From Escherichia phage HEMP5: a stretch of DNA of 64,000 nt. The stretch lies in sequence record OR424388.1. The stretch is one strand, 5' to 3'. Made by a program: the position numbers and the translations under genes. The stretch's first letter is position 1, and every line of letters starts with the position of its first letter. The notes under the pieces are model-generated. The model had not been told where the DNA came from and did no database searches. It saw only the letters and a list, made by a program, of their open reading frames with translations. Below are positions 2,641 to 46,995 of the stretch, piece by piece.

Positions 2641-3267
2641 TTAACCTCTATTCATAAAAGCATTAAAAATTTGGTCATCAATAGAAACATCTACTTTAGA
2701 CTGTTTTTCTGATGGTAATTCATATCCACATATTACAATTTTGTGATCAATATCAAAATACACAGAAGCAATATGATTAATGATGTTTTCAGTAAAGTCT
2801 AAATCAACATCAATATCTTTTTGACCACAGCCCAAAGGATAAATAATGCGAGTAATTCGATTATCTTTAACAAAGATTCCACCGACATACTCTGTGCTGC
2901 GTTTAAAGTCTACACGCCAACGAAATGAAAAATATTCAGGCTCTTTATGAGCTCTGCTCATAGGACACAACGAGTAACTAGAATAAGAGATGTCAAATCC
3001 TACGCCTTCAATATGAGCCAAAGTATCATGATTAAACCAATTATAATCGTACGCCAAATCCATTAGATTATAATATGTAAAAGGCACCGGATTAACGTCA
3101 TTAATCACAAGCATGTAATTAGCAACTGCTATAATTTCATTGTTTTTAACGAATACAAACCGTGATTGATGCGAATGACCTGGACCCGCGTTTTCACGAT
3201 TAATGATATAACACTGGGCACCTTTATATTTGTATGTATCTTTGCACTTGTGCATTTGATAGAGCAT
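2641..3267 (-). CDS. hypothetical protein at the T4 61.2 position (possible AdfA-like anti-DarT factor by synteny)
   Basis: 208 aa; TAATG overlap with sp; assignment to the AdfA family rests on position and recall only, no motif confirmed. Confidence 0.7.
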   Translation of the reverse strand: MLYQMHKCKDTYKYKGAQCYIINRENAGPGHSHQSRFVFVKNNEIIAVANYMLVINDVNPVPFTYYNLMDLAYDYNWFNHDTLAHIEGVGFDISYSSYSLCPMSRAHKEPEYFSFRWRVDFKRSTEYVGGIFVKDNRITRIIYPLGCGQKDIDVDLDFTENIINHIASVYFDIDHKIVICGYELPSEKQSKVDVSIDDQIFNAFMNRG

Positions 3268-3560
3268 TATTCACCTACCACTTCAGCGATGATATTTTTA
3301 TTATTAAAGTTTTTATCGCAATACAGAACATAATTATACTGCATTACACCACCAGACTTAAGCTGTTTTTGCACTTCAGCTTTCATTTCGGGGCGATCGC
3401 GCTCAACGATATTCATAATATCTGCTTCAATTTGAGTTTCAACCTCAGTCTGATCCGCAGTCATAGACCATTCGCACAAATCTTTATCATAGCCTGCCAT
3501 GGCAGGTTGAGCAGCGCAAGAAGCTAAAGCAAAAATTGCAGCAAAGATAAATTTTTTCAT
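3267..3560 (-). CDS. sp: Spackle periplasmic protein (inhibitor of gp5 tail lysozyme; superinfection exclusion)
   Basis: 97 aa; signal peptide with lipobox-like LASC; GAGG RBS; matches recalled T4 Sp length and sequence. Confidence 0.85.
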   Translation of the reverse strand: MKKFIFAAIFALASCAAQPAMAGYDKDLCEWSMTADQTEVETQIEADIMNIVERDRPEMKAEVQKQLKSGGVMQYNYVLYCDKNFNNKNIIAEVVGE

Positions 3561-3620
3561 GATAATCTCCTCGGTAGTTTATGTTTATATAATATCTCAA
3601 TTTCCAACAAAAGTAAATAG

Positions 3621-3878
3621 TTATTTTAAAACTTCTGCGTAATCACATGTTACAAACTGTTTCTCTAGCTTGACGATTTTACGAAAGTATCTTTTGCATT
3701 GGCGAATCTGCCTCTTCGTAGGACGTACAGCAAACTTAATAAATTCCACTCGACCAAATGGAGGACTTTCTTCTGCTGGAATATCTAACACCAATTCCCA
3801 CGTATCTGCAACAAGTGCTTTGAATTGCGTATTTTTCCTGACATTATACGGAGTAGGTTTAAATAAAACAATATGCAT
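3621..3878 (-). CDS. hypothetical protein (T4 61.4 position)
   Basis: 85 aa; ATG with GAGGA RBS. Confidence 0.7.
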   Translation of the reverse strand: MHIVLFKPTPYNVRKNTQFKALVADTWELVLDIPAEESPPFGRVEFIKFAVRPTKRQIRQCKRYFRKIVKLEKQFVTCDYAEVLK

Positions 3879-3879
3879 A

Positions 3880-4062
3880 TTATCCTCGGCAATCTACTTC
3901 ACATACTTTCTTGTCATCAATGAAAGCTTTAACTAATGCTTTATTAACTTCAGCATACTGAGTAGTAACCCATTGAACATCATCTTTCATCATTGTGGTT
4001 TCTTTAGTAAACATGCTTTCATTCTTAAACCACCCCATAAAAACTACCTTTACCAATTCCAT
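3880..4062 (-). CDS. dmd: Dmd antitoxin (inhibitor of host RnlA/LsoA toxins; T4 61.5)
   Basis: 60 aa MELVKVVFMGWFKNESMFTKE...; GGAG RBS; matches recalled T4 Dmd. Confidence 0.85.
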   Translation of the reverse strand: MELVKVVFMGWFKNESMFTKETTMMKDDVQWVTTQYAEVNKALVKAFIDDKKVCEVDCRG

Positions 4063-4120
4063 AACAATCTCCTCATTTAACCAACAAGACTACTATACCA
4101 TAGTCTTGTCAGCTTGTAAA

Positions 4121-5548
4121 CTAAAATTTTAATTCATTCGCCAAAGCATCTAACTGAGCTCGAGTGGATTCATTTCTTTGATAGCGATTCTGTTCAGCCT
4201 GAATCTGTTGTGAACCTGCTACTTCACTCACTTCGGTTGGAGTAGAATCTTGTTCAATTTCTACCCATTTTTGATTTCCTTTTTGAACACCCATCAAAAA
4301 CTTATTCCACTTATTCTTATCACCATATCGTGATTTGATTTGCTTAATAAGTTGTTGTTCAGCAGCTGCCAACTCCTCGGTTTCAATGACCGCAAGCATA
4401 AAATCAGCTGTCGCTGGAAGACCAGCAGATTCTGCGATATCACTCATGTTAACATCGGAAGAGTCCCAAGCTTGTTTACCGACCTGTGCTGCAGTCCAAA
4501 GAACAGTTTCGGTTTCAACAGCAAGAGCACGCAATTCCTCTGCAATAGCTTTAACAGTTGTGTAACTATTTTCTGAATAAACTCTAATGCGGCAAGATTT
4601 ACAAATACCTAGATAGTCGACAATAATGATTGTTGGAACAAAATTCTTCTTGAGCTTCAATTCATTCAAGAGAGACCTGAATGTGTTAGCATCTGCCCCA
4701 CCAGTGGGATACTGTTTAACGATTAAACGACCAAGAGTAGATTTCTCACGCCATTTTTCCATTTTTCCTTTATACTCAGCGTAAGAAATATGCCCATCAT
4801 CAATGTCATCAAGAGAAACATCAAGCATATTAGCATCAATACGCTTAGCACAGACTTCTTCTGCCATTTCCATGGAAATGTAAAGAACATTATGTCCGAG
4901 CTGCAAATAATCTGCTGCCAATGAACAAAGTCCTAATGATTTACCAACGTTAACGCCAGCCATTAAAACGTTCAGTGTCCCAGTCTCAGCTCCGCCTTTA
5001 GTAATTTTGTTTAGAATTCTGAGTTTAAATGGAACCTTACGAGCTTTATTCATATAAGATAGCCAACGTGCTTCGTAGTCATCCATCCAATCATGACCAA
5101 CGTAACTATCAAATGAAATTGATAATGCTTGGCGCATGATGTCAGGAATAGCACCAACGTCCGGCATTTTCTTATTTCGTTTTTCCGGAGGAAGCTCAGC
5201 ATTAGTTTGAATTTCGATTATTTTAGACGTAGCATTAAACATCGCCCTTTGCTGAACATATTTTTCTGTTTCTTTTACTAACCAGCTGTGGTCTTCCGGA
5301 GAATCAGCTAGTTTTGAAATAAGTGTTTTTACACCAGAATATTCTGTTTCAGTAAATGAACTATTTTCTAATGCAACATTTAACGCATTAATAGATGGAA
5401 CGCTATGGTACTCGTTAACATGAGATTTAATTAATTTGAACGTATTTTTAGCTGGACCACTTTCAAAATATTCTGAATCCATATATGGCCAAACTTTTGA
5501 AAAATAAGCTTGATCAAATATGAGATGAGAAAGAATAATTTCTACCAC
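4121..5548 (-). CDS. 41: replicative DNA helicase gp41 (DnaB-like)
   Basis: 475 aa; Walker A GVNVGKS; initiates at GTG 5 nt after AAGGAG; start overlaps the gene 40 stop. Confidence 0.95.
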   Translation of the reverse strand: MVEIILSHLIFDQAYFSKVWPYMDSEYFESGPAKNTFKLIKSHVNEYHSVPSINALNVALENSSFTETEYSGVKTLISKLADSPEDHSWLVKETEKYVQQRAMFNATSKIIEIQTNAELPPEKRNKKMPDVGAIPDIMRQALSISFDSYVGHDWMDDYEARWLSYMNKARKVPFKLRILNKITKGGAETGTLNVLMAGVNVGKSLGLCSLAADYLQLGHNVLYISMEMAEEVCAKRIDANMLDVSLDDIDDGHISYAEYKGKMEKWREKSTLGRLIVKQYPTGGADANTFRSLLNELKLKKNFVPTIIIVDYLGICKSCRIRVYSENSYTTVKAIAEELRALAVETETVLWTAAQVGKQAWDSSDVNMSDIAESAGLPATADFMLAVIETEELAAAEQQLIKQIKSRYGDKNKWNKFLMGVQKGNQKWVEIEQDSTPTEVSEVAGSQQIQAEQNRYQRNESTRAQLDALANELKF

Positions 5549-9956: not shown

Positions 9957-12653
9957 TCAGCCAAACAGGAAGTCTAACGAAGCTTTTTCTTCATAGTCCA
10001 TACCAGCTGATTCACACATGCCCGCAAGCGGTTTAACAAACGATTTTTGGAACAAAGTTGAGTAGTCAATCCAAGACAGTACGTCAGAACGAATTTCTTT
10101 TGGAAGTTCTGTACCCGACGGCCAAGCAATGCATTTGTCACCAAATGGATTTCCTTCACGCAATGGAAGAACCATTACTTTATTTCCATCCAAAATTGGA
10201 GCTACACCTAAACCGCTAACAGCTCGACGATAAGTTAGCACACCACGAATATGGAACGGACATTTAAATCCTGGCCAACCTTTATCATCATATTTCGCTA
10301 TATCGTTCGCAGTTTTTACTTCAGCAATAACTTTATAGTCGAGTTGACGATATTCTTTCTCGAAGTTCTTGTAATATTCTTGGACAGACTCTTCACCTTC
10401 CTGAAGAATACGACGAATACTTTCTTCGAGAGCTTCTTGGACCGCTTTGGGCGTTGAACTCTGCTGAGTTTCCATACCCATGATTTTTAGATGCGGTTCA
10501 GCAAATCGCTTATCTTCCATATCATAAACGTTCAGAGCATAACGCTTTTTCGCTTTCCAAAATCCACCAACGCCCTTTGAACCAAGTGGAGGGCAAGAAA
10601 TAGCTTCACGGTCCATATGCATCAGATGCTCGCGGTTATTCATATAATCACATAACTCACGATATGCAACATCAATCATAGGTTCCATCTTTTTCTTACC
10701 GAACTGATTCATGAATTCAACTAAATCGTTCTGCTCTTTGAATCGGTCAAGACCAACTTTTTCAATAACTTTATCTACACAAACATATACCGAATCAGTA
10801 TCACCTGCTGCGATGAAATCTTCGCCATTGGTTCCGCATACTTTATTCAGATATTCATTAATTTTACGAGCAATCCACTGAATACCAACTTGGCCGAAAA
10901 TTGTGATAGCAGTAGCATTTCGTAAATCATAGTAACGGAAATGAATATTACCAAGAGCACCATAAAGACTGTTAATAAGAATTTTACGGTTCAGCTGATT
11001 TGTATTAGCAAGTGTAGCCGCTTTTTCACATTCCTCAATCAGACTATTGAGAACAGATTCAGTATAATTCGATAGTTCATTTAAGAAATCATCACTGAAC
11101 TTAACATATCGTTCAACTTCAGGTTTAGTTGAACAAGACCCTGCGCCTTTCATAATAATCTTTTTAATAGCTTCGGCATTCATTTCTTCAGCGAACATTT
11201 TCTTTTTCCAATCTTTACGCTGGAAAAATACTTTAGCGATTTCCTTTGGAATGATACCTTCTTGATGCTTATCATACATCCATCCATTCGGAGAACAAGA
11301 ATATTCATCACTCGGTTTAGGAGCTGTTCCTGCGATATATTCATGAATTGGATGAACTTTAAACTGACCACGAATAGTCTCAGGACTAATGTTAACCTGA
11401 CGAATAATGCTAGGATACAGAGACGTCAAGTCAAAACTCATAATATATCGACGAGCAATTGGTTTAGGTTCAAATACAAATGCACCTGGAAAACTTTGTT
11501 TAACGTGCGAACCTTGTTGAGGAATAACCTTATGTTCACCTTTCAATGAGTTAAAAATAATAGCATCCCAGGTTTTAATAGGACTCATTACACCAGAAAA
11601 AGGCATTTTAGCGTAATAAGACATACTTAAAACTAGATCGATAAACCCGCGAATTTTATCAATTGCTTGAACTGATTCTACGTCAATGATGTTATAACTA
11701 ATATATCGTTGATGATTAGTCTCACGAAGTTTATTAATAGGACCGTCGTATGGTAATTTGCCCTTTTTAGTTTCATGCTGAGCAACTGATTCCAAAGAGA
11801 ATGACGGCAAATTAGTAAATGCGAATTTCTTATACAAATCTAAATAATCAAGAATAGATACGCCATCAATAGAATAAATTTCTTTGCTGCCGTACATATT
11901 TTGAATTAGTTTAGATTTTACCCGACCGATTGGAGAGAAGCGTTTCATACTGCGTTCACCGAGAACCATTTTAACGCGATTCATGATATACGGAACGTCA
12001 AATCCCTCAATATTCCAACCAGTAAAAATAGCAGGTCGTTTCTGTTCCCAAAGATTGATATATTCCATGAGCATATCGCGCTCATTATCGAATGGCATAT
12101 AAATTACTCGGTCAAGAATTTCTTGAGGAACTTCATCACCACCTTCACAGTCAAGCTTAGCAGCTAACTTTGCATCCCATTTTGATACTGAACCGTACAT
12201 TGAATTCAAAAGGTCGAAAACATAAAAACGATCATCAATTGAATCGTAATGAGTGATAGCATCAATTTCATATTCAGCTTTCATTGGGTCAGGAAATTTA
12301 TCACCAGTAACCTCAATGTCACAGTTAGCTACACGAACAAATTTTCGGTCATAAACAATTTCCGAACCATATGTATCACTGATATAAGCGAGTTTAAAAT
12401 CGTTCATACCGAGAGCTTCGAGACCGATGTCTTCCATTCGTTTCATCCAATCTCGAGCATCTTTCATTGATGGAAATTTTTGAGGAGCACAATTTTTACC
12501 ATAGATGTCTTTGTATTTTGACTCTTCCTTACAATGCCTAAACATAGTCGGAAGATATTCTACTTCACGAGTACGTTCCTTTCCGTTTTCATCAATATAA
12601 CGTTCAACAATGTTATTTCCGACTGTTTCAATAGAGATATAAAATTCTTTCAT
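9957..12653 (-). CDS. 43: DNA polymerase gp43 (family B, with 3'-5' exonuclease)
   Basis: 898 aa; exo and polymerase motifs (DTDS); essentially identical to recalled T4 gp43. Confidence 0.97.
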   Translation of the reverse strand: MKEFYISIETVGNNIVERYIDENGKERTREVEYLPTMFRHCKEESKYKDIYGKNCAPQKFPSMKDARDWMKRMEDIGLEALGMNDFKLAYISDTYGSEIVYDRKFVRVANCDIEVTGDKFPDPMKAEYEIDAITHYDSIDDRFYVFDLLNSMYGSVSKWDAKLAAKLDCEGGDEVPQEILDRVIYMPFDNERDMLMEYINLWEQKRPAIFTGWNIEGFDVPYIMNRVKMVLGERSMKRFSPIGRVKSKLIQNMYGSKEIYSIDGVSILDYLDLYKKFAFTNLPSFSLESVAQHETKKGKLPYDGPINKLRETNHQRYISYNIIDVESVQAIDKIRGFIDLVLSMSYYAKMPFSGVMSPIKTWDAIIFNSLKGEHKVIPQQGSHVKQSFPGAFVFEPKPIARRYIMSFDLTSLYPSIIRQVNISPETIRGQFKVHPIHEYIAGTAPKPSDEYSCSPNGWMYDKHQEGIIPKEIAKVFFQRKDWKKKMFAEEMNAEAIKKIIMKGAGSCSTKPEVERYVKFSDDFLNELSNYTESVLNSLIEECEKAATLANTNQLNRKILINSLYGALGNIHFRYYDLRNATAITIFGQVGIQWIARKINEYLNKVCGTNGEDFIAAGDTDSVYVCVDKVIEKVGLDRFKEQNDLVEFMNQFGKKKMEPMIDVAYRELCDYMNNREHLMHMDREAISCPPLGSKGVGGFWKAKKRYALNVYDMEDKRFAEPHLKIMGMETQQSSTPKAVQEALEESIRRILQEGEESVQEYYKNFEKEYRQLDYKVIAEVKTANDIAKYDDKGWPGFKCPFHIRGVLTYRRAVSGLGVAPILDGNKVMVLPLREGNPFGDKCIAWPSGTELPKEIRSDVLSWIDYSTLFQKSFVKPLAGMCESAGMDYEEKASLDFLFG

Positions 12654-12690
12654 AGATATTCCTTAGTTTATAGCCCGAGTTATTAGGCTC
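12654..12690 (-). promoter_or_regulatory. gene 43 translational operator (hairpin with AAUAACUC loop adjacent to the RBS)
   Basis: Minus RNA reads GAGCCUAAUAACUCGGGCUAUAAACUAAGGAAUAUCU-AUG; matches the known autogenous repression site of T4 DNA polymerase. Confidence 0.7.
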
Positions 12691-12713
12691 TTGATATATT
12701 ATACTCCAATTAA

Positions 12714-12727
12714 GGGGCCGAAGCCCC
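12714..12727 (-). terminator. GGGGC-UUCG-GCCCC hairpin in the regA-43 intergenic region
   Basis: Perfect 5-bp stem with UUCG tetraloop on the minus RNA; weak U-tract, so may be a stability element rather than a terminator. Confidence 0.45.
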
Positions 12728-12731
12728 TTGC

Positions 12732-13100
12732 TTAATTACCAATCGTATATTTAGGAACGAGTTTCCATTCATGTTTTTGTTTAAAAGAAATAACTCGGAA
12801 ATTATTAGTTAAATCTTTCATAAAAGTTCTTTGACCAGGAACGATTTCAATCAGTCCCCAATCTTCTAACAACCATGCAATCGAATCACGACGAACTTCA
12901 TCTTCTTCTGTCATTTCAACCTGGCGACCATCCATACGAAGCATTTCTTTAAAATGAACGATATAGTATAGTCCTTTTTTCTGAAGAATATGACAGGACT
13001 GATACAGAACTTTATCTTTATTATTAGCAATTCCCATACGAGTCAAAGTTTCTTTTACTTTCAGAAAATCTTCAGGTTTTTTAAGAGTAATTTCAATCAT
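12732..13100 (-). CDS. regA: RegA translational repressor
   Basis: 122 aa; matches recalled T4 RegA. Confidence 0.95.
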   Translation of the reverse strand: MIEITLKKPEDFLKVKETLTRMGIANNKDKVLYQSCHILQKKGLYYIVHFKEMLRMDGRQVEMTEEDEVRRDSIAWLLEDWGLIEIVPGQRTFMKDLTNNFRVISFKQKHEWKLVPKYTIGN

Positions 13101-13101
13101 T

Positions 13102-13665
13102 TTACCATTCCAATGCTAGTTTTTTGAGTTGTTTCTGTTCTTTTACGTTCTTAGTCACTTCTTTCAAAAAATCATCCGTGACTAATCCTTTAAGTTCTTT
13201 TAATACTAAAGGTAGTTTTCCATTTTTAGTAAGAATTGATTTATAGTTAATTGCATCATTTGTATTAACTTGATAACGCTTAGCAAGTAACTTAATAATC
13301 AATACTTCGGTGGAATCTTCAACTAGTTTTGCCCATTTACCATATCTTTTACCACGAGGAACTGCAGCCATTAGATAATTAAAATGAGCTTCATCACTTA
13401 ATCCAGAACCGATTAAATTCATAGCATATACAGCTGGCATGCACTCTGGAAATTGTGATAATGCATTTTCAACCATGAATTTTGAATAATCTTTTTGAGC
13501 AATAGAGCATTTAGTTTTATTATTAATAGCTCCAATTATTTCAAAAAACTCATTTTCAGCTTTTTCTTTAAAAGAATCAGCAGCGGATTGGACAGCCGTC
13601 CAATCTTTTGAATACCAAGCAACTTGATGCTCGTTTAATTGAATATCATCTTCAAATAAGCTCAT
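13102..13665 (-). CDS. 62: clamp loader small subunit gp62
   Basis: 187 aa from ATG ([14 protein letters not shown]...); the six-frame ORF starts at an upstream GTG. Confidence 0.9.
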
Positions 13666-13666
13666 A

Positions 13667-14626
13667 TCACTTCCACTGCATTTCACATGCTAACTGAATG
13701 AAAAGATAAGCTAAATGCAATTCAGTATTAGCTGCAATACCATGATACTGATTATTTTCGCCGACAATTTCGTACATACGAATAATACTCTGTGGAGTTA
13801 CACGTGAATAGATTTCTTCGGCAAGTTTACCCACGAACCACGAATAATCGGCTGCATATTTTGGTGCTAAAGCTCTGAGTTGTTTAACATCTTTATTTTT
13901 GAGAGACTCAAGAACATCATCAATAGCACCACGATCGTTAGTAACCAGTGATAAAATACCAGCATCCAAAACACCCTTAGATGAATAACTATCGAGCTCG
14001 CCAATAGTTTTACGAAAATCAGGAAAATTCTTTTTAACCAAAGCTGCTACAACTTTCATATCAGCTATAGCAATTCCTTCATGCTTGCAGATTTCAGTCA
14101 ATCGACGAATCATCTGCTTCATCATTTCAATTTTATCTTCATCGGTCGGTTGACCGAATGTAATAACTCGGCAGCGTGACTGAAGTGGTTTAATAATACC
14201 ATCAATATTGTTAGCAGTAATAATAATACTACAGTTTGAACTATAAGCTTCCATAAAGGAACGAAGATGTCGCTGAGACTCTGCTAACCCTGAACGGTCA
14301 AATTCATCAATAACGATTACTTTTTGACGACCGTCAAATGAAGCTGCGCTGGCAAAATTAGTCAAAGGACCACGAACGAAATCAATTTTACAATCTGATC
14401 CATTCACAAACATCATATCAGCATTTACATCATGACACAATGCTTTCGCTACAGTTGTTTTACCTGTTCCTGGAGAAGGAGAATGAAGAATAATATGTGG
14501 AATCTTACCTTTACTTGTAATAGATTTAAAGGTTTCTTTATCAAAGGCGGGAAGAATACATTCATCGATAGTAGATGGACGATATTTCTGTTCAAGAATG
14601 TGTTCTTTTTCATTTACGGTAATCAT
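13667..14626 (-). CDS. 44: clamp loader ATPase gp44 (AAA+)
   Basis: 319 aa from ATG ([11 protein letters not shown]...); Walker A SPGTGKTT; the six-frame ORF starts at an upstream TTG. Confidence 0.95.
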
Positions 14627-14661
14627 AATTTCCTCATTCAAGTTTTAGTGTAAATTATAAA

Positions 14662-14673
14662 GGGCCGAAGCCC
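14662..14673 (-). terminator. GGGC-UUCG-GCCC hairpin between genes 45 and 44
   Basis: 4-bp stem with UUCG loop on the minus RNA followed by a U/A-rich tract. Confidence 0.4.
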
Positions 14674-14677
14674 TCTA

Positions 14678-15364
14678 TTAAAAATCGTGGGTAGAATCAG
14701 CTTCAAGAGCTACTACATAATTCGCATGTTCACCTTCAAATTTAGCAGCACCTTGTTTACCTTTTGCCCAGAGCAGAAGTTTATAATTTCCTGGTTGCAT
14801 TTTCATATTTGCCATATTGATAATGAAATTAAATGTATTTTCACCATCATAATCACCAAGAGTCAAAGAATATTTAACACGGGTCAAAGCAGAATCTTCT
14901 ACTTTATTAAAACCGTTAATTACGATTTTACCTTCTTTTACCGTGATAGCAATTGTATCAATTTGCAGACCACGAGATACACGCAACAGTTGTTGAAGGT
15001 CTTCAGCTTTAATTTCAGTAACAACAGATGCTACCGGGAATGGAATTGGTTTATTAGGAGCAACTACTGTACTCGGATCGGCTGCTGGCCAAAAAATTGT
15101 TGAGCGGGCATCAGCAATTTTAATATTTCCATCTTCTGACTGGGAAATTTCTGCATCATCATTAACTAGCGACAGAATACCGAGAAAACCGTTCAAATCG
15201 TAAATTGCTACATCAAAATCAATAACGTCAGAAATATTCGCTTCTGCATAAGTTGTACCATTAACCGCACGAGTCATAATAAATTGACCGGATTTAAGCA
15301 TAATACCAGAGTTAATAGTAGCGAAATTTTTCAGCAGAGCAGTAGTATCTTTAGACAGTTTCAT
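14678..15364 (-). CDS. 45: sliding clamp gp45
   Basis: 228 aa; matches recalled T4 gp45. Confidence 0.95.
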   Translation of the reverse strand: MKLSKDTTALLKNFATINSGIMLKSGQFIMTRAVNGTTYAEANISDVIDFDVAIYDLNGFLGILSLVNDDAEISQSEDGNIKIADARSTIFWPAADPSTVVAPNKPIPFPVASVVTEIKAEDLQQLLRVSRGLQIDTIAITVKEGKIVINGFNKVEDSALTRVKYSLTLGDYDGENTFNFIINMANMKMQPGNYKLLLWAKGKQGAAKFEGEHANYVVALEADSTHDF

Positions 15365-24937: not shown

Positions 24938-25400
24938 GTGTCCACACCCCATCGGTATTTGACCAAAGTCGCTGATTATCTGATCCTCGCCACAGCTTTT
25001 TGGTCGGAAGATTTTTCTCATACTTCCCATCAATAATAACATCAACATATTTAAGCATTTCTAGTTGTTTAATATCTTCAAACTTATATCCTGTCCACAA
25101 CCAAATGCTTTTATTGGGATAAAGATTTTTAATAGTTTGAACCACAGAGTGAATCACGTCTCTGTTATCAGGATAGAGAGGGTCACCTCCGGTTATAGTC
25201 AATCCTTCTATATAATCATTATTCAAACATTCAATTAATTGTTCTAGTGTTTCACCAGTGAATGGAACACCATTTCTAGCATTCCATGTTGATTTATTAT
25301 AACACCCTTCACATTTATGCAAACAACCTGTAACGAAAAGAACGGTCCTGCAGCCAGGACCATTAACAAAATCGCAAGGATAAAATCTATCATAATTCAT
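24930..25400 (-). CDS. nrdG: anaerobic ribonucleotide reductase activase NrdG (radical SAM)
   Basis: 156 aa; CxxxCxxC cluster motif (CLHKCEGC); ATGA overlap with nrdD. Confidence 0.95.
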   Translation of the reverse strand: MNYDRFYPCDFVNGPGCRTVLFVTGCLHKCEGCYNKSTWNARNGVPFTGETLEQLIECLNNDYIEGLTITGGDPLYPDNRDVIHSVVQTIKNLYPNKSIWLWTGYKFEDIKQLEMLKYVDVIIDGKYEKNLPTKKLWRGSDNQRLWSNTDGVWTHD

Positions 25401-27214
25401 TGGTGCTTAACCCTATGCATGATTTCTTTATTTTTGCCGAGATTAAATCCGCGTTCGTTCGGATTTCCCAAATAACCACATGTTCTTCTTATTGTGTTCA
25501 TCTTTTTAGGATCAGTTTCTCCACAAATAGAACAAACAAATCCGTTTTCAGTAGGAGTCATTTCATGGGTACTTCCACATGTAAAACATTTATCTACTGG
25601 CATATTAACACCAAAATAATCTAAATGTTGTGCAGCATAATCCCAGACAGCCTCAAGACCTTTTAGGTTATTTTTCATATCAGGAAGTTCAACATAAGAA
25701 ATGTGACCACCTGTCGCAATGAAATGATATGGGGCTTCGCGAGAAATCTTTTCAAACGGAGTAATATTTTCTTCTACTGAAACATGGAAACTGTTAGTGT
25801 ACCATCCTTTATCGGTAACATCTTTTACACTTCCATATTTTTCTGTATCAAGTTTACAGAAGCGATAACAAAGGTTTTCAGCAGGAGTCGAATACAAACT
25901 AAAAGCAAACCCAGTTCTTTCAGCCCACTGTTTAAGACGAGCATTCATTTTAGTTAAAATTTCTTGTCCAATATCACGACCGACAAGAATATTCAATTCA
26001 TGAATACCAATGTATCCTAAAGACACTGAACTTCTACCGTTTTTAAATAACTCAATTATGTCGTCATCAGGTTTAAGACGAACCCCGAATGCACCTTCTT
26101 GATAAAGAATAGGAGCAACAGTAGCTTTAACTCCTTTTAAGGAACTAATTCTACACATCAAAGCTTCAAAACATAAATCCATTCGCTCATTGAACAATTC
26201 GATAAATTTCTGTTCATTGAACTGTGTTCCAATATAAGAATCCAACGCAATACGAGGAAGATTCAGTGTTACAACACCAAGATTATTACGTCCATCAAGA
26301 ATTTCATTACCGGTTGAATCTTTCCACGCACTCAAGAAACTGCGGCAACCCATTGGAGAAACAGGAATAGATGAGCCGGTGATAGCTTTATTGTTCTTAG
26401 CTGAAATAATATCAGGATACATTCTTTTGCTTGCACACTCTAGAGCAAGCTGCTTAATATCATAGTTCGGATCGTCTTTATAAAGATTAACACCTTCTTC
26501 AACGAACATAACAAGCTTAGGGAAAATAGGAGTTATCCCATCACGACCGAGGCCTTTAATACGATTTTTCAGAATTGCTTTCTGAATCATTCGTTCAGTC
26601 CAGTCAGTTCCCGTACCAAATGTAATTGTTACAAAAGGAGTCTGTCCGTTTGAACTAAAGAGAGTATTTACTTCATATTCATAAGCTTGGAATGCATCGT
26701 ATACATCTTTTTCTGTTTTAGATTGAGCATAATTTAACGCATCAGCGATTTGCCATTTTTCTGCATCCTCAATATGTTTTGCATAGGTGCGTTTAACATA
26801 AGGAGAAAGTACTTTATCTACATTCGCAAAAGTCGTTCCGCCGTATTGGTGAGAAGCAACTTGCGCAGTAATTTGTGCCATAATTGCAGTAGCAACTCCA
26901 ATTGATTTAGGAGTTTCAATCTGTGCATTACCTAGCTTAAATCCGTTTTCAAGCATTCCTTTTAAATCTACTAAACAACAATTAGTAAATGGAAGAGCAG
27001 GGGAATAATCAATATCATGGAAATGAATAATTCCGCTTTCATGCGCTTTCATAATAAAAGACGGGACCATATTTTTGGCAATGTGTTTAGACACAATACC
27101 AGCCATAAGGTCCCGTTGAGTTGGAAAAACACGAGAATCTTTATTAGCATTCTCGTTTAAAAGGTCTTTATTAGTTTTATGAATCAATCCTTCAATTTCT
27201 TTTTCAATTGTCAT
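25397..27214 (-). CDS. nrdD: anaerobic ribonucleotide reductase NrdD (glycyl radical enzyme)
   Basis: 605 aa continuous ORF; C-terminal zinc ribbon and glycyl radical motif RRTCGYLG; no intron interrupts it. Confidence 0.97.
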   Translation of the reverse strand: MTIEKEIEGLIHKTNKDLLNENANKDSRVFPTQRDLMAGIVSKHIAKNMVPSFIMKAHESGIIHFHDIDYSPALPFTNCCLVDLKGMLENGFKLGNAQIETPKSIGVATAIMAQITAQVASHQYGGTTFANVDKVLSPYVKRTYAKHIEDAEKWQIADALNYAQSKTEKDVYDAFQAYEYEVNTLFSSNGQTPFVTITFGTGTDWTERMIQKAILKNRIKGLGRDGITPIFPKLVMFVEEGVNLYKDDPNYDIKQLALECASKRMYPDIISAKNNKAITGSSIPVSPMGCRSFLSAWKDSTGNEILDGRNNLGVVTLNLPRIALDSYIGTQFNEQKFIELFNERMDLCFEALMCRISSLKGVKATVAPILYQEGAFGVRLKPDDDIIELFKNGRSSVSLGYIGIHELNILVGRDIGQEILTKMNARLKQWAERTGFAFSLYSTPAENLCYRFCKLDTEKYGSVKDVTDKGWYTNSFHVSVEENITPFEKISREAPYHFIATGGHISYVELPDMKNNLKGLEAVWDYAAQHLDYFGVNMPVDKCFTCGSTHEMTPTENGFVCSICGETDPKKMNTIRRTCGYLGNPNERGFNLGKNKEIMHRVKHQ

Positions 27215-28334: not shown

Positions 28335-28655
28335 TTATAGCGTAATCCATTCTCGTACTGTCTGAGTTACTACACGTTCATGGGGCTCGACTAGTTCAAC
28401 AGTCGGAACTGCATAATACCAGTCAGAATGATAAGAACCTGACCGAGATTCATTTACAGCCACATGTACATTATGTTTTGGACTAAAGTAAACACACTGA
28501 CGATATTGACATTTACCATCTTGCACCCAGTCTTCTATTTCGACAGGTTTAAGATAATCGGAAAAATCGAAATCATAGTTTTCCGAAAATGCATCATGGT
28601 CTTCAATGATTTCGCTCAGAACTGCATCAACATCTAATTTATTTTCAATAGTCAT
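28335..28655 (-). CDS. hypothetical protein
   Basis: 106 aa; ATG start. Confidence 0.65.
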   Translation of the reverse strand: MTIENKLDVDAVLSEIIEDHDAFSENYDFDFSDYLKPVEIEDWVQDGKCQYRQCVYFSPKHNVHVAVNESRSGSYHSDWYYAVPTVELVEPHERVVTQTVREWITL

Positions 28656-28665
28656 TTTTCACCAA

Positions 28666-28836
28666 TTAATTTCGCAATTTATTAAGTTCTTCATCATCAA
28701 TCCAGGATTCTAGTCCTGATGGCAGGTCACATTCAATTTCCCAAAGAAGTTCTTCAATTTTCTGAAGACGATCTAGTTCTTCGGCTGGAATAGTAACCAT
28801 TGACGGAGCTCGTGATACATTAATATCGTAAATCAT
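28666..28836 (-). CDS. hypothetical acidic protein
   Basis: 56 aa from internal ATG; the six-frame ORF starts at GTG 28875. Confidence 0.5.
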   Translation of the reverse strand: MIYDINVSRAPSMVTIPAEELDRLQKIEELLWEIECDLPSGLESWIDDEELNKLRN

Positions 28837-28838
28837 AT

Positions 28839-29054
28839 TTACCCCAGTTTGACCATGCAATCGCCGTATTTCCACTTAGAAATAGACTTTTCGCCATTAG
28901 AATAATAAACTTCGAGTTTAGCACGATTATTTTTAATTTGAATAACCTTGGCTGTCATCAAAGTTCCATACCCATAATAAACTGCAACTTCATCACCTAC
29001 ATATACCGCGCTTCCGCGGTAATCATGAATATAGTCAGTTCCTTCGAGCATCAT
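28839..29054 (-). CDS. hypothetical protein
   Basis: 71 aa; ATGA overlap with the nrdC stop. Confidence 0.6.
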   Translation of the reverse strand: MMLEGTDYIHDYRGSAVYVGDEVAVYYGYGTLMTAKVIQIKNNRAKLEVYYSNGEKSISKWKYGDCMVKLG

Positions 29055-29315: not shown

Positions 29316-29558
29316 TTATTCCTTAATTCCTAGTACTTGTTTAAAAGTCTCGTCGTAATCAAGACTTTGGCCCGTTTGTTCTTTATGTTTGTATATAATA
29401 TCACTTACTTCTGATAGCATATTTTTATATGAACGAGTTAAAGCAGATTTAAGCACGCTGTATCTATCAGGAAATTTACCGTGTTCATTATAATAAGCTA
29501 TTGCTAATTCACGGACTGCCTTTTCAGCAGCCTCCATATATTCTTTACGCTTGGTCAT
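29316..29558 (-). CDS. hypothetical protein (nrdC.1 position)
   Basis: 80 aa; ATG start. Confidence 0.65.
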
Positions 29559-29560
29559 TT

Positions 29561-29950
29561 TTAATCCAAAATATTATTAGGCATTGGTTGAACACTCACA
29601 AGTTCTTTAAAGAACTCAGTAGAGTCAGGCAATTTAACCATTTCCGGAGCATGCTTACTGAATTTATGTTTACATTGACGGCATTTATATTCAAGCTCTG
29701 GTTTACGCCAGTTAATCAACTGAACTTGTTCAGTACCGCATTCAGGGCAATTAGGAACGTTTTTAGAAGCTCTTTCACGTCGTTCAACCATAGCCATAAT
29801 AGCATCCCATGCTGGAGGTTTAAAATCTAAATCGTCGCAGCCGTGAATCTTTCCACGCATTTCCATATCATCTTCCTCACCAGCCATAATAATTTTAATT
29901 AAACTGGAATTACTTGAAGCTGCAATGTCTTCTAATAAACGCTTTTTCAT
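29561..29950 (-). CDS. zinc-ribbon protein (nrdC.2 position)
   Basis: 129 aa; CPECG...CRQCKH zinc ribbon; ATGA overlap upstream. Confidence 0.7.
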
Positions 29951-30876
29951 TTCAATACCTCAATAGCATTACGTAAACCATTTGCTTTTGCATTAAGAGC
30001 TTTTAACAATTTGGTGTGTTCTGCAATTTGGGCTTCAACTTCAATCAAACGGGCATTGAGATATTCACGTTCTTCACTCAGATTATCAACCTTTTCTACT
30101 TTAGGCTCTTTTACAACTGTCTTATATGTATTAGGGTTCTTCAGTTTAATTAGAATGCGTGAACTGTATAACATTGAACCATTATCTTCGGTTTCGTCAT
30201 ACATTTCCACTACGTCCATAATTTTTAACATCATGCGGAGTTTATAAGACAACGAACGAATAGTTTTGTTGTGCTTATTAATTTCTTTAGCTGTCATGGT
30301 GCCAAGATTACGTGAGTAATAATAAGGAACCTGGATATTAATTAATACTGATGAACCACCTGGCTTGTGTGTTACTTCATCAGCAATAACCCAGTCCTTA
30401 ACATGAACTGTATTTGTACGGTCATCGCCCGCGGTAAATAGTTTGCGAGCATGCTTAAAAAGCATATTCACTTGGTCATTGAATTGACAAGCAAATTTAT
30501 CAGCAAATTTAGTTTCAGGAATGGTAGAAAACCAATCAGCCAAATGAGTCTTTTTAACATCATTAACAATAGTAAATTCAACCAAATCGGTTATAGATGT
30601 CTCAGATTTAATGAAGCTCGGCTTCATAAAGTTTTTAATGTTCTCATGAGCTACAGTAGAAGATAACATACGAGAACGTTTAAACCATTCAAGCAAATTG
30701 CCTAACGAATGAGAATAAGCGTTTTGAGTATCTTTACAGATATGATTTTCCTGACCAACATATTGAAGGAAATCACGAAGAATATTATTGATTACTGCTC
30801 TGTGCCCGATCTGATAATTACGGTGTTTAGTAATAAGACTGTCAAAATAATCAATATAATGTTTACGAGTTTTCAT
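29947..30876 (-). CDS. hypothetical protein, paralog family member A with C-terminal coiled coil
   Basis: 309 aa; about 45-aa heptad-repeat tail; central motif KIMDVVEMY shared with neighbours. Confidence 0.75.
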   Translation of the reverse strand: MKTRKHYIDYFDSLITKHRNYQIGHRAVINNILRDFLQYVGQENHICKDTQNAYSHSLGNLLEWFKRSRMLSSTVAHENIKNFMKPSFIKSETSITDLVEFTIVNDVKKTHLADWFSTIPETKFADKFACQFNDQVNMLFKHARKLFTAGDDRTNTVHVKDWVIADEVTHKPGGSSVLINIQVPYYYSRNLGTMTAKEINKHNKTIRSLSYKLRMMLKIMDVVEMYDETEDNGSMLYSSRILIKLKNPNTYKTVVKEPKVEKVDNLSEEREYLNARLIEVEAQIAEHTKLLKALNAKANGLRNAIEVLK

Positions 30877-30928
30877 ATTCTTCTCACTTGGTTAATGGTT
30901 TATACTCCGAGCCATCCTTGGCTTTAAA

Positions 30929-31930
30929 TTACTTAATTAACTGTAAAGCTTGTTCAAGACGATCAAGACGATTAACGGATTCTTCCCAAATCTTTTTAGC
31001 CTGCTCATATTCTTTCTGCGCTTTATTAGAAATTTCTAGAACTTCTTTATAAGCTTTTTCTAGTGCAATAACTTCTGGACGAATTTCTACTGGTTCAGGC
31101 GAATCGTCAAGACATTCCATTAGTTCCTCGAGGGTAGTTTCTTCTTTAGGAGTATTCACAATTTCATCACATTTTTGTTGGTAAATTTCTTTATCAGTCG
31201 GTGAGTACGCACACTTTACTCCACGGAGACTAACTACAATTTTATATCCTTCCCAACCGCATATATTCTTAAAAGGATAAGTATGAATATTTTCTACTGT
31301 TTCCATACAAAGTAATGCGGTCTCTAACTGACGAGTTATATCGCTAGCAATTGAGAAAAATTTATTAATGTTCTTTTGATTAGCTTCTGGTGTAAAAAAT
31401 TCATAATTCACAAAAATAGCTGCTTTATTTTTATCAAGCTCATATTCTTTTATGATAATCATATCAGAAGCCCAAGGATGGATTTGACGATAATCACCAT
31501 AGCATAATTTAGAAGCTGATTTTAGAATTTGCTTCTTGAAAAGTCTAAAATTACTAATCCAACGACGAGTAAAAATATTCTCAGGGTCTTCTTTATTATT
31601 AAGATGATAAGAATTAACATCACCGAACCAACTGTATCCTACTACATCTTTAGTTCGTTTAATTTCTTTCCCAAATTTACCAAGAATATCTTGATTAACT
31701 AAATATGAAAGAAGACGAGAACCTTTAAAAGTTTCCTTAATATCATCTTTATATTCGCGACTAGAAATTTTATGAACTTCATGAATAAATTTGCTTGAAG
31801 AAACAATACTTGCATCAATATTATTGAGCCATTGATTGATAATGGAAATAACACTATTCTGACTAAACACAGGTTTAACTTTATCATCAATAACGCTATT
31901 GAATGATTTGATATATTCGTTACGAGTCAT
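30929..31930 (-). CDS. hypothetical protein, paralog family member B with C-terminal coiled coil
   Basis: 334 aa from ATG with GAGGAG RBS (the six-frame ORF starts at an upstream TTG). Confidence 0.75.
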   Translation of the reverse strand: MTRNEYIKSFNSVIDDKVKPVFSQNSVISIINQWLNNIDASIVSSSKFIHEVHKISSREYKDDIKETFKGSRLLSYLVNQDILGKFGKEIKRTKDVVGYSWFGDVNSYHLNNKEDPENIFTRRWISNFRLFKKQILKSASKLCYGDYRQIHPWASDMIIIKEYELDKNKAAIFVNYEFFTPEANQKNINKFFSIASDITRQLETALLCMETVENIHTYPFKNICGWEGYKIVVSLRGVKCAYSPTDKEIYQQKCDEIVNTPKEETTLEELMECLDDSPEPVEIRPEVIALEKAYKEVLEISNKAQKEYEQAKKIWEESVNRLDRLEQALQLIK

Positions 31931-31987
31931 ATTAATCTCCTCAGTAGAAAGTAAGAACATTATACCACATCCTTGTGGCAAAGTAAA

Positions 31988-33007
31988 CTAGTTTAGTGCA
32001 TTTAGTGCATTGTTCAGTTTAGAACGTTGCTTCGTAAGATTTTTGACTTTTTCTTGAGCTTTTTCTAGCATCTTTTCAGCTTCTAACACTTCATTAGTTG
32101 CTTTAACGAGTTCATCATCTACTGCCTTGATAGACTTCTCAATCGCATCCGCGTGCCATTTTTCAACAGGTTTAAAACTCGGATTTTCAACAGGAAGAAA
32201 ATTCACTTTATTGAATTTCCATGTATCTTTATTACCTGAACTATACATCCAAAATTTAGGATCGTTTGATGAGTAATTGGATAAATTTAAGATATCTTGC
32301 ACTTCCTGCTTTTTCTCTTGCGGGACTTCGTCCTTTCTCAAAAAATCGTATTTAAATGAAACGATCATATCAAGTTCATACGTTGTTGTATGTTCCCAAT
32401 TTCGCTCAAAATGAGGTAAAATCTTAGACTGAACCGCGGCAACTACATCCATATACTTAAATGCTTCTGTCAACTGTGATTTAAGGCATTCACAAATTGA
32501 AAGAGAATTTTTTGTATTAGGTTTAAAGCTAATTCGTGCAGTTCTGTTATTTTCTTTTAATGGTCTTACTTCCATCTGAAGAGTATAACCATCAAATTTC
32601 AGATTCTTTAAGTTAATATCAGAACCTTTTAATCGACTAGCCGTCGACAAAATTTGCTTTAATTGTTTACGGAATAGAGCAATAAATCTCCACTCAATAC
32701 GATAATGATTTGGATTGAAAAATCCAGATGATAAATCGACCTTACTCTGACCAACACCTTGAACAAATAGAGGATTTTTATAATCAATAGTTTTACAGAA
32801 ATCAGTGAGCTGCTCACGAGCAGTCATTTGTGTAATATACCCCGCTTTACTAAAATGACGTAATAATTCACTGCTATTTAGATATTTAAAGTGAATAGCA
32901 CGATTAACTTTATCAGGGTCTAAATTATTTTCACACAAAAATGTCATAACATTACGAGTATCGCTGCCAGTACGAACCATATCTTCAATTTGAGAACGAG
33001 TTTTCAT
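31988..33007 (-). CDS. hypothetical protein, paralog family member C with C-terminal coiled coil
   Basis: 339 aa; AAGGAA RBS; motif KYMDVVAAV. Confidence 0.75.
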   Translation of the reverse strand: MKTRSQIEDMVRTGSDTRNVMTFLCENNLDPDKVNRAIHFKYLNSSELLRHFSKAGYITQMTAREQLTDFCKTIDYKNPLFVQGVGQSKVDLSSGFFNPNHYRIEWRFIALFRKQLKQILSTASRLKGSDINLKNLKFDGYTLQMEVRPLKENNRTARISFKPNTKNSLSICECLKSQLTEAFKYMDVVAAVQSKILPHFERNWEHTTTYELDMIVSFKYDFLRKDEVPQEKKQEVQDILNLSNYSSNDPKFWMYSSGNKDTWKFNKVNFLPVENPSFKPVEKWHADAIEKSIKAVDDELVKATNEVLEAEKMLEKAQEKVKNLTKQRSKLNNALNALN

Positions 33008-33015
33008 GGTGTTCC

Positions 33016-33903
33016 TTAAGATTTAAGTAAATCAACAATTTTAATTAACTTTTCACGCTCAGATTTAGCTTTACTACTCAGTCCAGATAGTCTGAAAATT
33101 TCATCATCATATTGTTGAATAGAAATATTCAGCTCTTCAATCTGTTTATTAAAATAATCAATTTGTTCAGAATGTTTTTCGTTACTACGAACTGGTACAG
33201 GTTTTGTAGGCAATTTAGTTGAACTGGATTCATCCGGGCGATAAATTAAAACACAACTTGAACCAATAGGGCATTTTGCACCAGATGAATATTCTAATGT
33301 TCCAGCTTCTTTTAAAACTTCAAAAGCTAAACAGAGATGATGCCCCATATTAACATAATCTGTAGAGCGAGCTCTGATGTAATAATCATCGCCGCGAATA
33401 CTAAATTTAAAGCATTTAAGGTCTTCTGTATTATTGGTCTTAAAAATCATTTGTTTATCTAGACCTTTAGCTAATCGAGCGCCTAATGCTAATAATCGTC
33501 TTTGATTTTCCCACAAATCCGCAATCATTTGATCGAATGATAATTTTGGCATTAGTCGACCATAAAGGTCATATCCTTTATTATAATTACGAAGGATTTC
33601 ACTCGCATTAATACGAGACAATGCTCCAATTTTATTAAGGGCTTTCATAATGCGATTAGATAAACTCATTCCAGATCCGTTTGTTCGCTGCAAATGTTTT
33701 TCTAATCCAAATCCAATATCAACTTTAAACTTATCTAAAATTTCTGCATGAACATCTCTGTCAATAACATTCAAATCCAAAGTTGAGTTAAATCTATGAA
33801 AAAATTTATCTGGCTCTGCACTGCGAAATACAGTCCATTCATTTAATTTTTTATTAACTAAAGATTTAATTACTGCATTGACATTATTAATTACTACTGA
33901 CAT
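33016..33903 (-). CDS. hypothetical protein, paralog family member D with C-terminal coiled coil
   Basis: 295 aa from ATG with GAGGAAA RBS. Confidence 0.75.
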   Translation of the reverse strand: MSVVINNVNAVIKSLVNKKLNEWTVFRSAEPDKFFHRFNSTLDLNVIDRDVHAEILDKFKVDIGFGLEKHLQRTNGSGMSLSNRIMKALNKIGALSRINASEILRNYNKGYDLYGRLMPKLSFDQMIADLWENQRRLLALGARLAKGLDKQMIFKTNNTEDLKCFKFSIRGDDYYIRARSTDYVNMGHHLCLAFEVLKEAGTLEYSSGAKCPIGSSCVLIYRPDESSSTKLPTKPVPVRSNEKHSEQIDYFNKQIEELNISIQQYDDEIFRLSGLSSKAKSEREKLIKIVDLLKS

Positions 33904-34373: not shown

Positions 34374-34901
34374 TTATGCGAGTACCGTCTTTAACCGTTC
34401 TTCAAACTTCCGAAGAGTATTTTGGCGTTCAGCTCTTTGCTTTTTGTAAGTTTCAATACGCTCTGAAATGAGAGTGTATCGTTCATTTACTGATTCTTTC
34501 ATAAAATCAGGAATTTCACGAGAAGCTTTAATCTCGTCAAATTTATCAATAACAGCTTGCTCTTCAGCAATTAAGTTATCATACATTAAAATATCTTTCT
34601 TGATAAACTCAATATCTTCTTGAGTTACACGAGATAATTTAGATGCTTTATCCTTTTTGTACTGTTCGTTAGTATCACGAGACCAGTGTAATGTACGATT
34701 TTTATTCGTATTTTTGTAAATTTCTACAATACCGATCTCATCGATAATAACGATCCAATTCCAACGGGATTTGTAAATTTGTCCTCCATCAACAGTGATT
34801 TCACCTCCGATTGAGATGTCATTAAAGAACTTGCTTTGCGCTTCAGATTTAAATTTACCATCGTTGTAATTTACTAAGTTGAAAATATCTTTAGCGTTCA
34901 T
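34374..34901 (-). CDS. hypothetical protein
   Basis: 175 aa; GGAGG RBS; directly downstream of an early promoter cassette. Confidence 0.7.
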   Translation of the reverse strand: MNAKDIFNLVNYNDGKFKSEAQSKFFNDISIGGEITVDGGQIYKSRWNWIVIIDEIGIVEIYKNTNKNRTLHWSRDTNEQYKKDKASKLSRVTQEDIEFIKKDILMYDNLIAEEQAVIDKFDEIKASREIPDFMKESVNERYTLISERIETYKKQRAERQNTLRKFEERLKTVLA

Positions 34902-46356: not shown

Positions 46357-46935
46357 TTAATTACCACGGGCTGCATTAGCAACGGCATAAGCGTACTGAA
46401 CATTAGCGTCCTTAAACGTACCTTTAGAGGTATCTATTTCTGCCTTAAAGCCGCCTTTAGCCATAACATCGGCAAATTCTTTACGGAAAGCCATTGCATC
46501 AAGACCTTTCCATGATGATTTGTGCTTAGCGAATTCAAGACCAGCGTAGTTGACAGCCTTAGCTAATTTGTTATCAATAACCCATTTACCAGCTTTAGGC
46601 ACAAACACCGGGCCTTTCTGTTTAGAGAACAGTTTTAAATTCCAGCGACGAAGATCACTGTCGGCTTTAACAAAAGCTGCGTCTAAGTTACTAGCAACAA
46701 CATCCTGAATATGGCCAAATTTAAGCCCATCAACTTCAATATTTAGATCGGTACGCCAGCGAAGTCCTTCCCAAGCGAAGGCTTTAAAATCAGAAGCTTT
46801 TGTAGCTAAGTATCGTTCAATAGGGGCTGTTTTAGGGTCAAAGCCGTTTCCACCACGATAAGTCCACTCGTCCTTATTAATGCCTTGAGCTTTTCCTGCA
46901 AAGGCCTCGGCGATAAATTCTTTGTATGTTTTCAT
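46357..46935 (-). CDS. ipIII: internal protein III (capsid-targeted, CTS MKTYKEFIAE)
   Basis: 192 aa; N-terminal CTS; size matches T4 IPIII. Confidence 0.85.
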   Translation of the reverse strand: MKTYKEFIAEAFAGKAQGINKDEWTYRGGNGFDPKTAPIERYLATKASDFKAFAWEGLRWRTDLNIEVDGLKFGHIQDVVASNLDAAFVKADSDLRRWNLKLFSKQKGPVFVPKAGKWVIDNKLAKAVNYAGLEFAKHKSSWKGLDAMAFRKEFADVMAKGGFKAEIDTSKGTFKDANVQYAYAVANAARGN

Positions 46936-46965
46936 TTTTGTTTCCTTGTTTGTTTTGATAGAGTA

Positions 46966-46995
46966 ATTATACTATATTAATACTTAAGCGTAAAC
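46966..46995 (-). promoter_or_regulatory. T4-early-type promoter for ipIII (-35 GTTTAC, 18-nt spacer, -10 TATAAT)
   Basis: Minus strand; about 30 nt upstream of the ipIII ATG. Confidence 0.55.

Follow-up and report, generated by a model that had tools for sequence, protein, structure and literature searches.

Beside nrdC in the genome of Escherichia phage HEMP5 (OR424388.1), four genes of similar length follow one another, and the question raised by this locus is whether they are copies of one gene and what they do for the phage. We have analysed a 64,000-nucleotide stretch of this genome (the window), which is placed in the genus Tequatrovirus. A 4.9-kb query over the four-gene array matched 741 phage records, and the array region was 99.9% identical to that of Yersinia phage PYps32T. 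Based on synteny with the T4 reference record NC_000866, the four open reading frames (ORFs) correspond one for one to T4 nrdC.3, nrdC.4, nrdC.5 and nrdC.6 (Table 1). From profile comparison, AlphaFold2 (AF2) models and Foldseek searches, we concluded that the four proteins are homologous, with NrdC.6 as the most distant member. On balance, we lean towards the view that they are early, dispensable paralogs of a family specific to T4-like phages, which most likely serve as protein inhibitors of host anti-phage defence proteins.

A first-pass annotation, made from the DNA letters alone, had placed four tandem paralogs here. Its gene coordinates and lengths were correct, all four ORFs being present on the minus strand, and the paralogy is borne out by our comparisons. 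The pairwise alignment that it had recommended showed BLASTP to be too insensitive: the paralogs are 15-25% identical to one another, and only the NrdC.3-NrdC.4 pair was significant (E 6e-6, 25% over 229 amino acids). We therefore report profiles built from the orthologs of Mosigvirus, Dhakavirus and Gaprivervirus genomes. With hhalign, the NrdC.3 and NrdC.4 profiles matched with P 2e-11 (4.6e-11 without the tails), and those of NrdC.4 and NrdC.5 with P 2.4e-4 over 243 collinear columns (7.5e-5 without the tails); NrdC.3 and NrdC.5 without their tails gave P 8e-4. These tail-less matches contradict a kinship restricted to the C-terminal tails, which the first-pass annotation had named as the finding that would overturn its proposal. 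The link to NrdC.6 is the weakest within the proposed NrdC.3-NrdC.6 superfamily. With deeper alignments, the NrdC.6 profile matched the combined NrdC.5, NrdC.4 and NrdC.3 profile over its full length (68% probability, P 4.9e-5, 215 collinear columns). In a stricter run, the NrdC.6 head alone, that is, the part before the tail, scored 26.9 against 14.7 +/- 2.9 (maximum 25.3) for 60 block-shuffled decoys.

The AF2 models, which cover NrdC.5 and NrdC.6 as monomers computed from shallower alignments, reached predicted local distance difference test (pLDDT) values of 69.2 and 78.7, respectively. The order of elements was the same in both: N-terminal helices are followed by two helix pairs, then by two beta-hairpins with a long helix between them, and a disordered linker leads to the long C-terminal helix. 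These secondary-structure elements coincide with the pairing in the profile alignment. The models thus predict, as the plan of the family, a head of helices and a beta-hairpin/helix/beta-hairpin unit, a disordered linker and a C-terminal heptad helix of 46-60 residues. Foldseek searches of BFVD matched the NrdC.5 model to NrdC.6 of phage JS10 (E 6.6e-5, probability 1.0), and both models matched uncharacterised proteins of Klebsiella phage Mineola, Erwinia phage Cronus and Yersinia phage fHe-Yen9-01.

Could the four proteins nevertheless be unrelated, having nothing but convergent helical tails in common? On the one hand, BLASTP gave no significant match beyond NrdC.3-NrdC.4, and an hmmsearch of the window ORFs with the NrdC.3/NrdC.4/NrdC.5 profile found nrdC.6 at just E 0.024-0.077. 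PHROGs and Pfam also divide the four into three families (phrog_1435 / PF26897, phrog_2351 / DUF7235 and phrog_2257 / PF26899); NrdC.5 matched DUF7235 (PF23882) over its full length with 413.3 bits (cut-off 30, E 8.9e-124), and this Pfam model found nothing in NrdC.3, NrdC.4 or NrdC.6 at E <= 1. On the other hand, the tail-less profiles are significant and collinear, the NrdC.6 head exceeds its decoys, the heads of NrdC.5 and NrdC.6 have an identical secondary-structure order, and Foldseek joins the NrdC.5 model to NrdC.6 over the full length. Considering these points, we regard unrelated proteins as highly improbable. The PHROG and Pfam families already hold members of this superfamily, kept as separate families of unknown function; joining the three as one fold, including relatives in the phages Acj61 and JD18, appears to be new.

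In terms of function, NrdC.5 provides the starting point. Srikant, Guegler and Laub described T4 NrdC.5 as an anti-Dsr1 factor (eLife 2022; PMC9391042). Neither ECOR17 nor MG1655 with the dsr1 of ECOR17 supported plating of a T4 clone from which accessory genes had been lost, and nrdC.5 alone, expressed from a plasmid, restored plating of the T4 deletion clone on dsr1 cells (PMC9391042). The window nrdC.5 is the ortholog of this gene, 91% identical and with a full-length DUF7235, and it occupies the same slot; within the nrdC-mobD accessory block it has nrdC.6 on one side and nrdC.4 on the other, an arrangement found in NC_000866 and in five other Tevenvirinae loci. NrdC.3, NrdC.4 and NrdC.6, in contrast, are related to T4 NrdC.5 at the profile and fold level only. 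Judging from the 91% identity, the window allele is a putative Dsr1 inhibitor. Dsr1 is a SIR2 defence protein whose tetratricopeptide repeat (TPR) sensor binds the phage major capsid protein (PMC12803255), and this sensor thereby offers a surface that an inhibitor could block.

The surroundings of the array point in the same direction. According to published work, gp49.2 inhibits OLD and nrdC.1 inhibits Septu. The window 49.2 (28335-28655) and nrdC.1 (29316-29558) are orthologs of these inhibitors and lie at most 1.6 kb downstream of the array. Because they adjoin it, the genes from pin through nrdC.6 have the appearance of one anti-defence island. The first-pass annotation had given host specificity or anti-defence decoys as examples of a role; the anti-defence part agrees with the published action of T4 nrdC.5 against Dsr1 and with these two inhibitors nearby, and action as a decoy or in adsorption-type host specificity is conjectural.

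Selection on the four genes bears on whether the paralogs of nrdC.5 are functional as well. Pairwise Nei-Gojobori ratios of nonsynonymous to synonymous substitution rates (dN/dS), calculated over whole genes with the window compared against as many as nine further Tequatrovirus loci, were 0.28 for nrdC.3, 0.16 for nrdC.4, 0.18 for nrdC.5 and 0.13 for nrdC.6. Neighbouring genes mostly gave 0.00-0.12, with nrdC.2 and nrdC.7 at 0.20-0.21. The four genes are under purifying but relaxed selection, and their proteins evolve faster than those of most neighbours. Diversifying selection, which had been suggested for the array, is not seen gene-wide, and at this level it is unsupported because all values are well below 1.

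These values also help to weigh the possibility that the four are true paralogs among which NrdC.5 is the sole anti-defence protein, the rest having other host-takeover roles or being redundant, drifting copies. The phenotype is known for nrdC.5 alone, transposon mapping in T4 found none of the four genes to be essential (bioRxiv 2025.11.20.689424, supplement), isolates with one to three copies missing are viable, and an identity of 15-25% is divergence enough for differing functions. However, purifying selection acts on each paralog family, and the surrounding genes are anti-defence genes. In addition, each paralog has been retained over three or four genera with a conserved tail, which indicates that the paralogs are not decaying. 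Accordingly, we consider a role confined to NrdC.5 rather doubtful.

The tails are the second feature that the four proteins have in common. The first-pass annotation had assigned a heptad-repeat tail to all four: the heptad scores of NrdC.4, NrdC.5 and NrdC.6 were above those of 200 of 200 shuffles, whereas that of NrdC.3 was reached by 14% of shuffles and is not significant. Among 68 gene-like ORFs of the window, the five highest C-terminal heptad scores belonged to the four paralogs and nrdC.8. The tails had also been described as low-complexity, a label that does not fit, as in each protein the tail is conserved between genera more strongly than any other segment. Tail identity exceeded head identity in NrdC.6 (61% vs 31-40%), NrdC.4 (59-65% vs 41-49%), NrdC.3 (78-80% vs 60-76%) and NrdC.5 (28-37% vs 20-24%). 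Across the family, the tails end in an L-x-x-A-x-x-x-L-K pattern, which in NrdC.6 reads L-I-K-I-V-D-L-L-K, and the NrdC.6 tail includes invariant polar residues.

Based on this layout, in which a globular head of about 225-245 residues evolves fast and is joined by a disordered linker to a tail that is better conserved and would form a coiled coil, we propose the following mechanism. NrdC.5 neutralises the SIR2-TPR nicotinamide adenine dinucleotide (NAD) hydrolase (NADase) Dsr1, as shown for T4. The head would bind the defence protein directly and set the specificity, and the tail may oligomerise the inhibitor or provide a second, conserved contact. NrdC.3, NrdC.4 and NrdC.6 may be aimed at other defence proteins or at Dsr1-like variants, and gene gain, loss, allele replacement and fusion in the array could tune the host range. 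We infer the head-binding and tail-oligomerising parts from the protein architecture and from an analogy with DSAD1 and DSR2. DSAD1 reportedly acts by binding DSR2 directly. In published accounts, DSAD1 of SPbeta-like phages counteracts the SIR2 NADase DSR2 (PMC11087589, PMC10973363, PMC11263360). It would be a functional analogue of the proposed role, as a phage protein that acts against a SIR2 NADase, but host, phage family and target paralog differ, and profile searches of the PDB found no sequence relationship.

The tails could also serve to bring the paralogs together, similar tails forming a hetero-oligomeric coiled coil and hence one multi-headed complex. The common ending of all tails, their position as the most conserved segment, the adjacency of the genes, which are probably co-transcribed in two units, and the tail retained in an nrdC.6::nrdC.4 fusion of phage Manna (described below) are in favour of such a complex. 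However, the profiles of the tails match one another weakly (P 4e-4 to 0.13), and the tail sequence is distinctive for each family. Because the copy number varies from one to four, with a single copy in Klebsiella phage JD18, partners are not obligatory, and plasmid-borne nrdC.5 alone was sufficient against Dsr1, in a phage clone for which the presence of the paralogs is not stated. We therefore consider joint action in one complex unlikely.

Several points weigh against inhibition of defence proteins by all four paralogs through this head-and-tail mechanism. The phenotype concerns one of the four genes, nrdC.5, and was obtained in T4, not in HEMP5. The dN/dS values below 1 carry no arms-race signature at whole-gene resolution. 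The attachment of NrdC.6 to the family depends on P values of about 1e-4 to 1e-5 and on Foldseek, without strong sequence identity, and confidence in the AF2 models is moderate (pLDDT 69 and 79). Moreover, simple self-association does not explain the strict conservation of polar residues in the tail.

The distribution of the family is narrow. Out of 1.84 billion representative proteins, 22 matched the family profile at E <= 1e-3, and the family is restricted to T4-like phages, always beside nrdC. A search for related loci in IMG/VR returned only close relatives for NrdC.5 and no locus for three distant members. The comparison of copy number across T4-like genomes that the first-pass annotation had called for gave one to four copies within Straboviridae: up to four in Tequatrovirus, three in Dhakavirus and Gaprivervirus (NrdC.6, NrdC.5 and NrdC.4) and three in Mosigvirus (NrdC.6, NrdC.5 and NrdC.3). 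The corresponding region of phage JD18 contains one member, and in Acinetobacter phage Acj61, which belongs to a different subfamily, two adjacent members lie directly beside nrdC. The conserved-tail/variable-head pattern and this wider tandem distribution appear to be new; the genes themselves and the nrdC.5 phenotype were already known.

Individual isolates within Tequatrovirus show how the array changes. In phage ACG-C40 nrdC.6 is the sole intact copy, phage Pinarejo has lost nrdC.6, phage LYE-01 is without nrdC.4, and nrdC.5 is split in phage Ec_YwIITB1. Salmonella phage Manna (locus 3215-4252) encodes an in-frame fusion of NrdC.6 residues 1-268 with NrdC.4 residues 251-333; the junction lies at a shared DEI, nrdC.5 is removed entirely, and the head-linker-tail layout is kept. 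In gp220 of Shigella phage Sf25, and also in Sf22, nrdC.6 has an 83-residue internal tandem duplication (IRAHSTDY...QIEEL) that brings the protein to 378 amino acids. The 803-bp ENA contig ERZ27280904 k141_89665 holds an ORF (12-641) in the nrdC.5 slot, with the nrdC.4 start directly after it. In this ORF, the last 53 residues of NrdC.5, at 100% identity, follow an N-terminal body of about 155 residues that is unrelated. The foreign head had no Pfam or PHROG match; a frameshifted nrdC.5 and a known endonuclease were both ruled out as its identity, and the ORF reflects either a true exchange of heads or a chimera made in assembly.

Exchange of whole alleles is suggested at nrdC.3, which has two allele classes in Tequatrovirus. 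The window carries a divergent allele, 61% identical to that of T4, T2 and T6 with a dS near 1, and 74-77% identical to the Mosigvirus copies; the paralogs flanking nrdC.3 are 91-96% identical, and nrdC.4 is 91% identical to its T4 counterpart. The neighbouring nrdC.2 (29561-29950) is also dimorphic, being 80-83% identical to some Tequatrovirus loci and 100% to others. Because the flanking genes are more than 90% identical, the dimorphism of nrdC.3 and nrdC.2 suggests allele replacement by recombination.

Tentatively, the array might be taken as a modular system, in which the conserved tail is a chassis for oligomerisation or for docking on a shared host factor, and interchangeable heads disable different immune sensors. 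If this were so, nrdC.3, nrdC.4 and nrdC.6 would be three undiscovered anti-defence proteins, new specificities would arise through duplication, allele replacement and head/tail recombination, and the Manna fusion and the foreign-head ORF of k141_89665 would be snapshots of that process.

The array can be compared with known anti-defence loci of T4. Like dmd-tifA-adfA, IPI-IPIII and gp49.2/nrdC.1, it is a cluster of small, early, dispensable genes, each directed in those loci at one host defence, and gained, lost or amplified via recombination. In the known T4 islands, however, the genes are unrelated, whereas a single fold is tandemly expanded in nrdC.3-nrdC.6. In contrast to the T4 internal proteins, the four paralogs have neither a capsid-targeting sequence nor an (L/I)-x-E site. 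Even in T4, the best-studied phage, three of the four genes still lack a function. As paralogs of the anti-Dsr1 gene nrdC.5, nrdC.3, nrdC.4 and nrdC.6 are candidate immunity inhibitors that are cheap to test. Since the number of copies varies between natural isolates, differences in host range among therapeutic T4-like phages may have a genetic basis here, and the head-linker-tail plan with its unexpectedly conserved tail points to a mechanism that can be dissected.

Table 1. Positions of the four paralogs and of their sequence features in the window
Feature	Position	Strand	Residues or length	Remarks
nrdC.3 ortholog	29947-30876	-	309 aa	phrog_1435, PF26897, shared with nrdC.4
nrdC.3 heptad tail	29950-30087	-	264-309	
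KIMDVV, nrdC.3	30208-30225	-	218-223	equivalent of KYMDVV
nrdC.4 ortholog	30929-31930	-	333 aa from ATG (MTRNEY)	phrog_1435 / PF26897
nrdC.4 heptad tail	30932-31069	-	288-333	
LCMETV, nrdC.4	31295-31312	-		degenerate equivalent of KYMDVV
Promoter-like site between nrdC.5 and nrdC.4	31959-31987	-		TTTACT, 17 nt, TG-n-TATAAT
nrdC.5 ortholog	31988-33007	-	339 aa	Pfam DUF7235 (PF23882), phrog_2351
nrdC.5 tail	31991-32170	-	280-339	AF2: single long helix 280-338
KYMDVV motif, nrdC.5	32441-32458	-	184-189	end of helix 168-184, start of strand 189-199
nrdC.6 ortholog	33016-33903	-	295 aa from ATG (MSVVIN)	phrog_2257 / PF26899
nrdC.6 tail	33019-33180	-	242-295	AF2: helix-turn-helix 242-271, 277-294

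The first-pass annotation had reported a conserved K-x-MDVV motif in all four heads. The motif is exact in NrdC.3 and NrdC.5, but degenerate in NrdC.4 and absent from NrdC.6; JD18 gp070 has the MDVV core without the preceding lysine (HMDVVK). K-x-MDVV is unsuitable as a family-wide marker.

The N-termini are of interest in relation to the T4 internal proteins, which carry an N-terminal capsid-targeting sequence, MKTYQEFIAE, that ends in an (L/I)-x-E protease site. In the window, an ipIII-like ORF (46357-46971, minus strand) begins with MKTYKEFIAE. The paralogs begin with MKTRKHYIDY (NrdC.3), MTRNEYIKSF (NrdC.4), MKTRSQIEDM (NrdC.5) and MSVVINNVNA (NrdC.6), and in a three-family alignment M(K)TRxEY is the start of the NrdC.3, NrdC.4 and NrdC.5 families, T3 and R4 being invariant. 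We rejected a capsid-targeting sequence in the four paralogs, as the (L/I)-x-E cleavage site is missing from all of them; for the same reason, the likeness of the three N-termini is superficial.

Further searches addressed the fold and possible additional members. No solved structure resembling the fold was found. When all PDB chains were searched with the NrdC.5/NrdC.4/NrdC.3 and NrdC.6 profiles, no match was better than E 0.02, and chains of SIR2 or DSAD1 were absent. In the four proteins and 17 diverse members, Pfam, NCBIfam and PADLOC scans detected DUF7235 and otherwise only scattered sub-threshold coiled-coil matches. A weak XerD/integrase SAM-like match of NrdC.3 (E 0.003-0.12) was dropped because it did not recur in other members. 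In BFVD, models bearing the name tail completion protein were repeatedly but weakly matched by the NrdC.5 model in Foldseek (E about 0.01, probability 0.47-0.94); the likeness may be of a generic alpha/beta kind or may hint at a head that mimics a virion protein. An hmmsearch of all window ORFs found no further paralogs, a match to gp47 (E 0.025) being judged chance. nrdC.8 (34374-34901, minus strand, 175 amino acids) ends in a heptad helix and ranks third of the 68 ORFs by C-terminal heptad score. We rejected it as a fifth member, as it has the tail but no profile similarity to the four paralogs; with a dN/dS of 0.03, it is far more conserved than they are. The NrdC.5 model also weakly matched a 175-amino-acid protein of Klebsiella phage KPV15 (E 1.1e-3); JD18 has no nrdC.8 ortholog by which this protein could be identified.

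Phage Acj61 (locus 11229-13938) encodes, besides its two family members, a nicotinamide phosphoribosyltransferase and a ribose-phosphate pyrophosphokinase, which we take to be an NAD-reconstitution gene pair. This phage may hold two separate answers to NAD-depleting defences.

In the window, nrdC.2, nrdC.1 and nrdC lie downstream of the array and nrdC.7 to nrdC.11 upstream. The site between nrdC.5 and nrdC.4, with 10 of 12 consensus matches and an extended -10 element, resembles a T4 early promoter and is a putative one. The ATG starts of nrdC.4 and nrdC.6 are consistent with the T4 annotation. In NC_000866, nrdC.6 (14067-14894 of the extracted locus) is annotated with 275 amino acids and is covered by tblastn in two pieces, and it has about 296 amino acids in other T4 records and in the HIDEN-SEQ T4 annotation; the short form probably stems from a frameshift that the reference record has near the tail, or from a difference in sequencing there. 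Farther from the array, nrdD (25397-27214) is a single uninterrupted ORF of 605 amino acids in the window, where the T4 reference has a group I intron with I-TevII and the adjacent mobC. Between 49.2 and nrdC, two small ORFs (28666-28875 and 28839-29054) replace T4 49.3.

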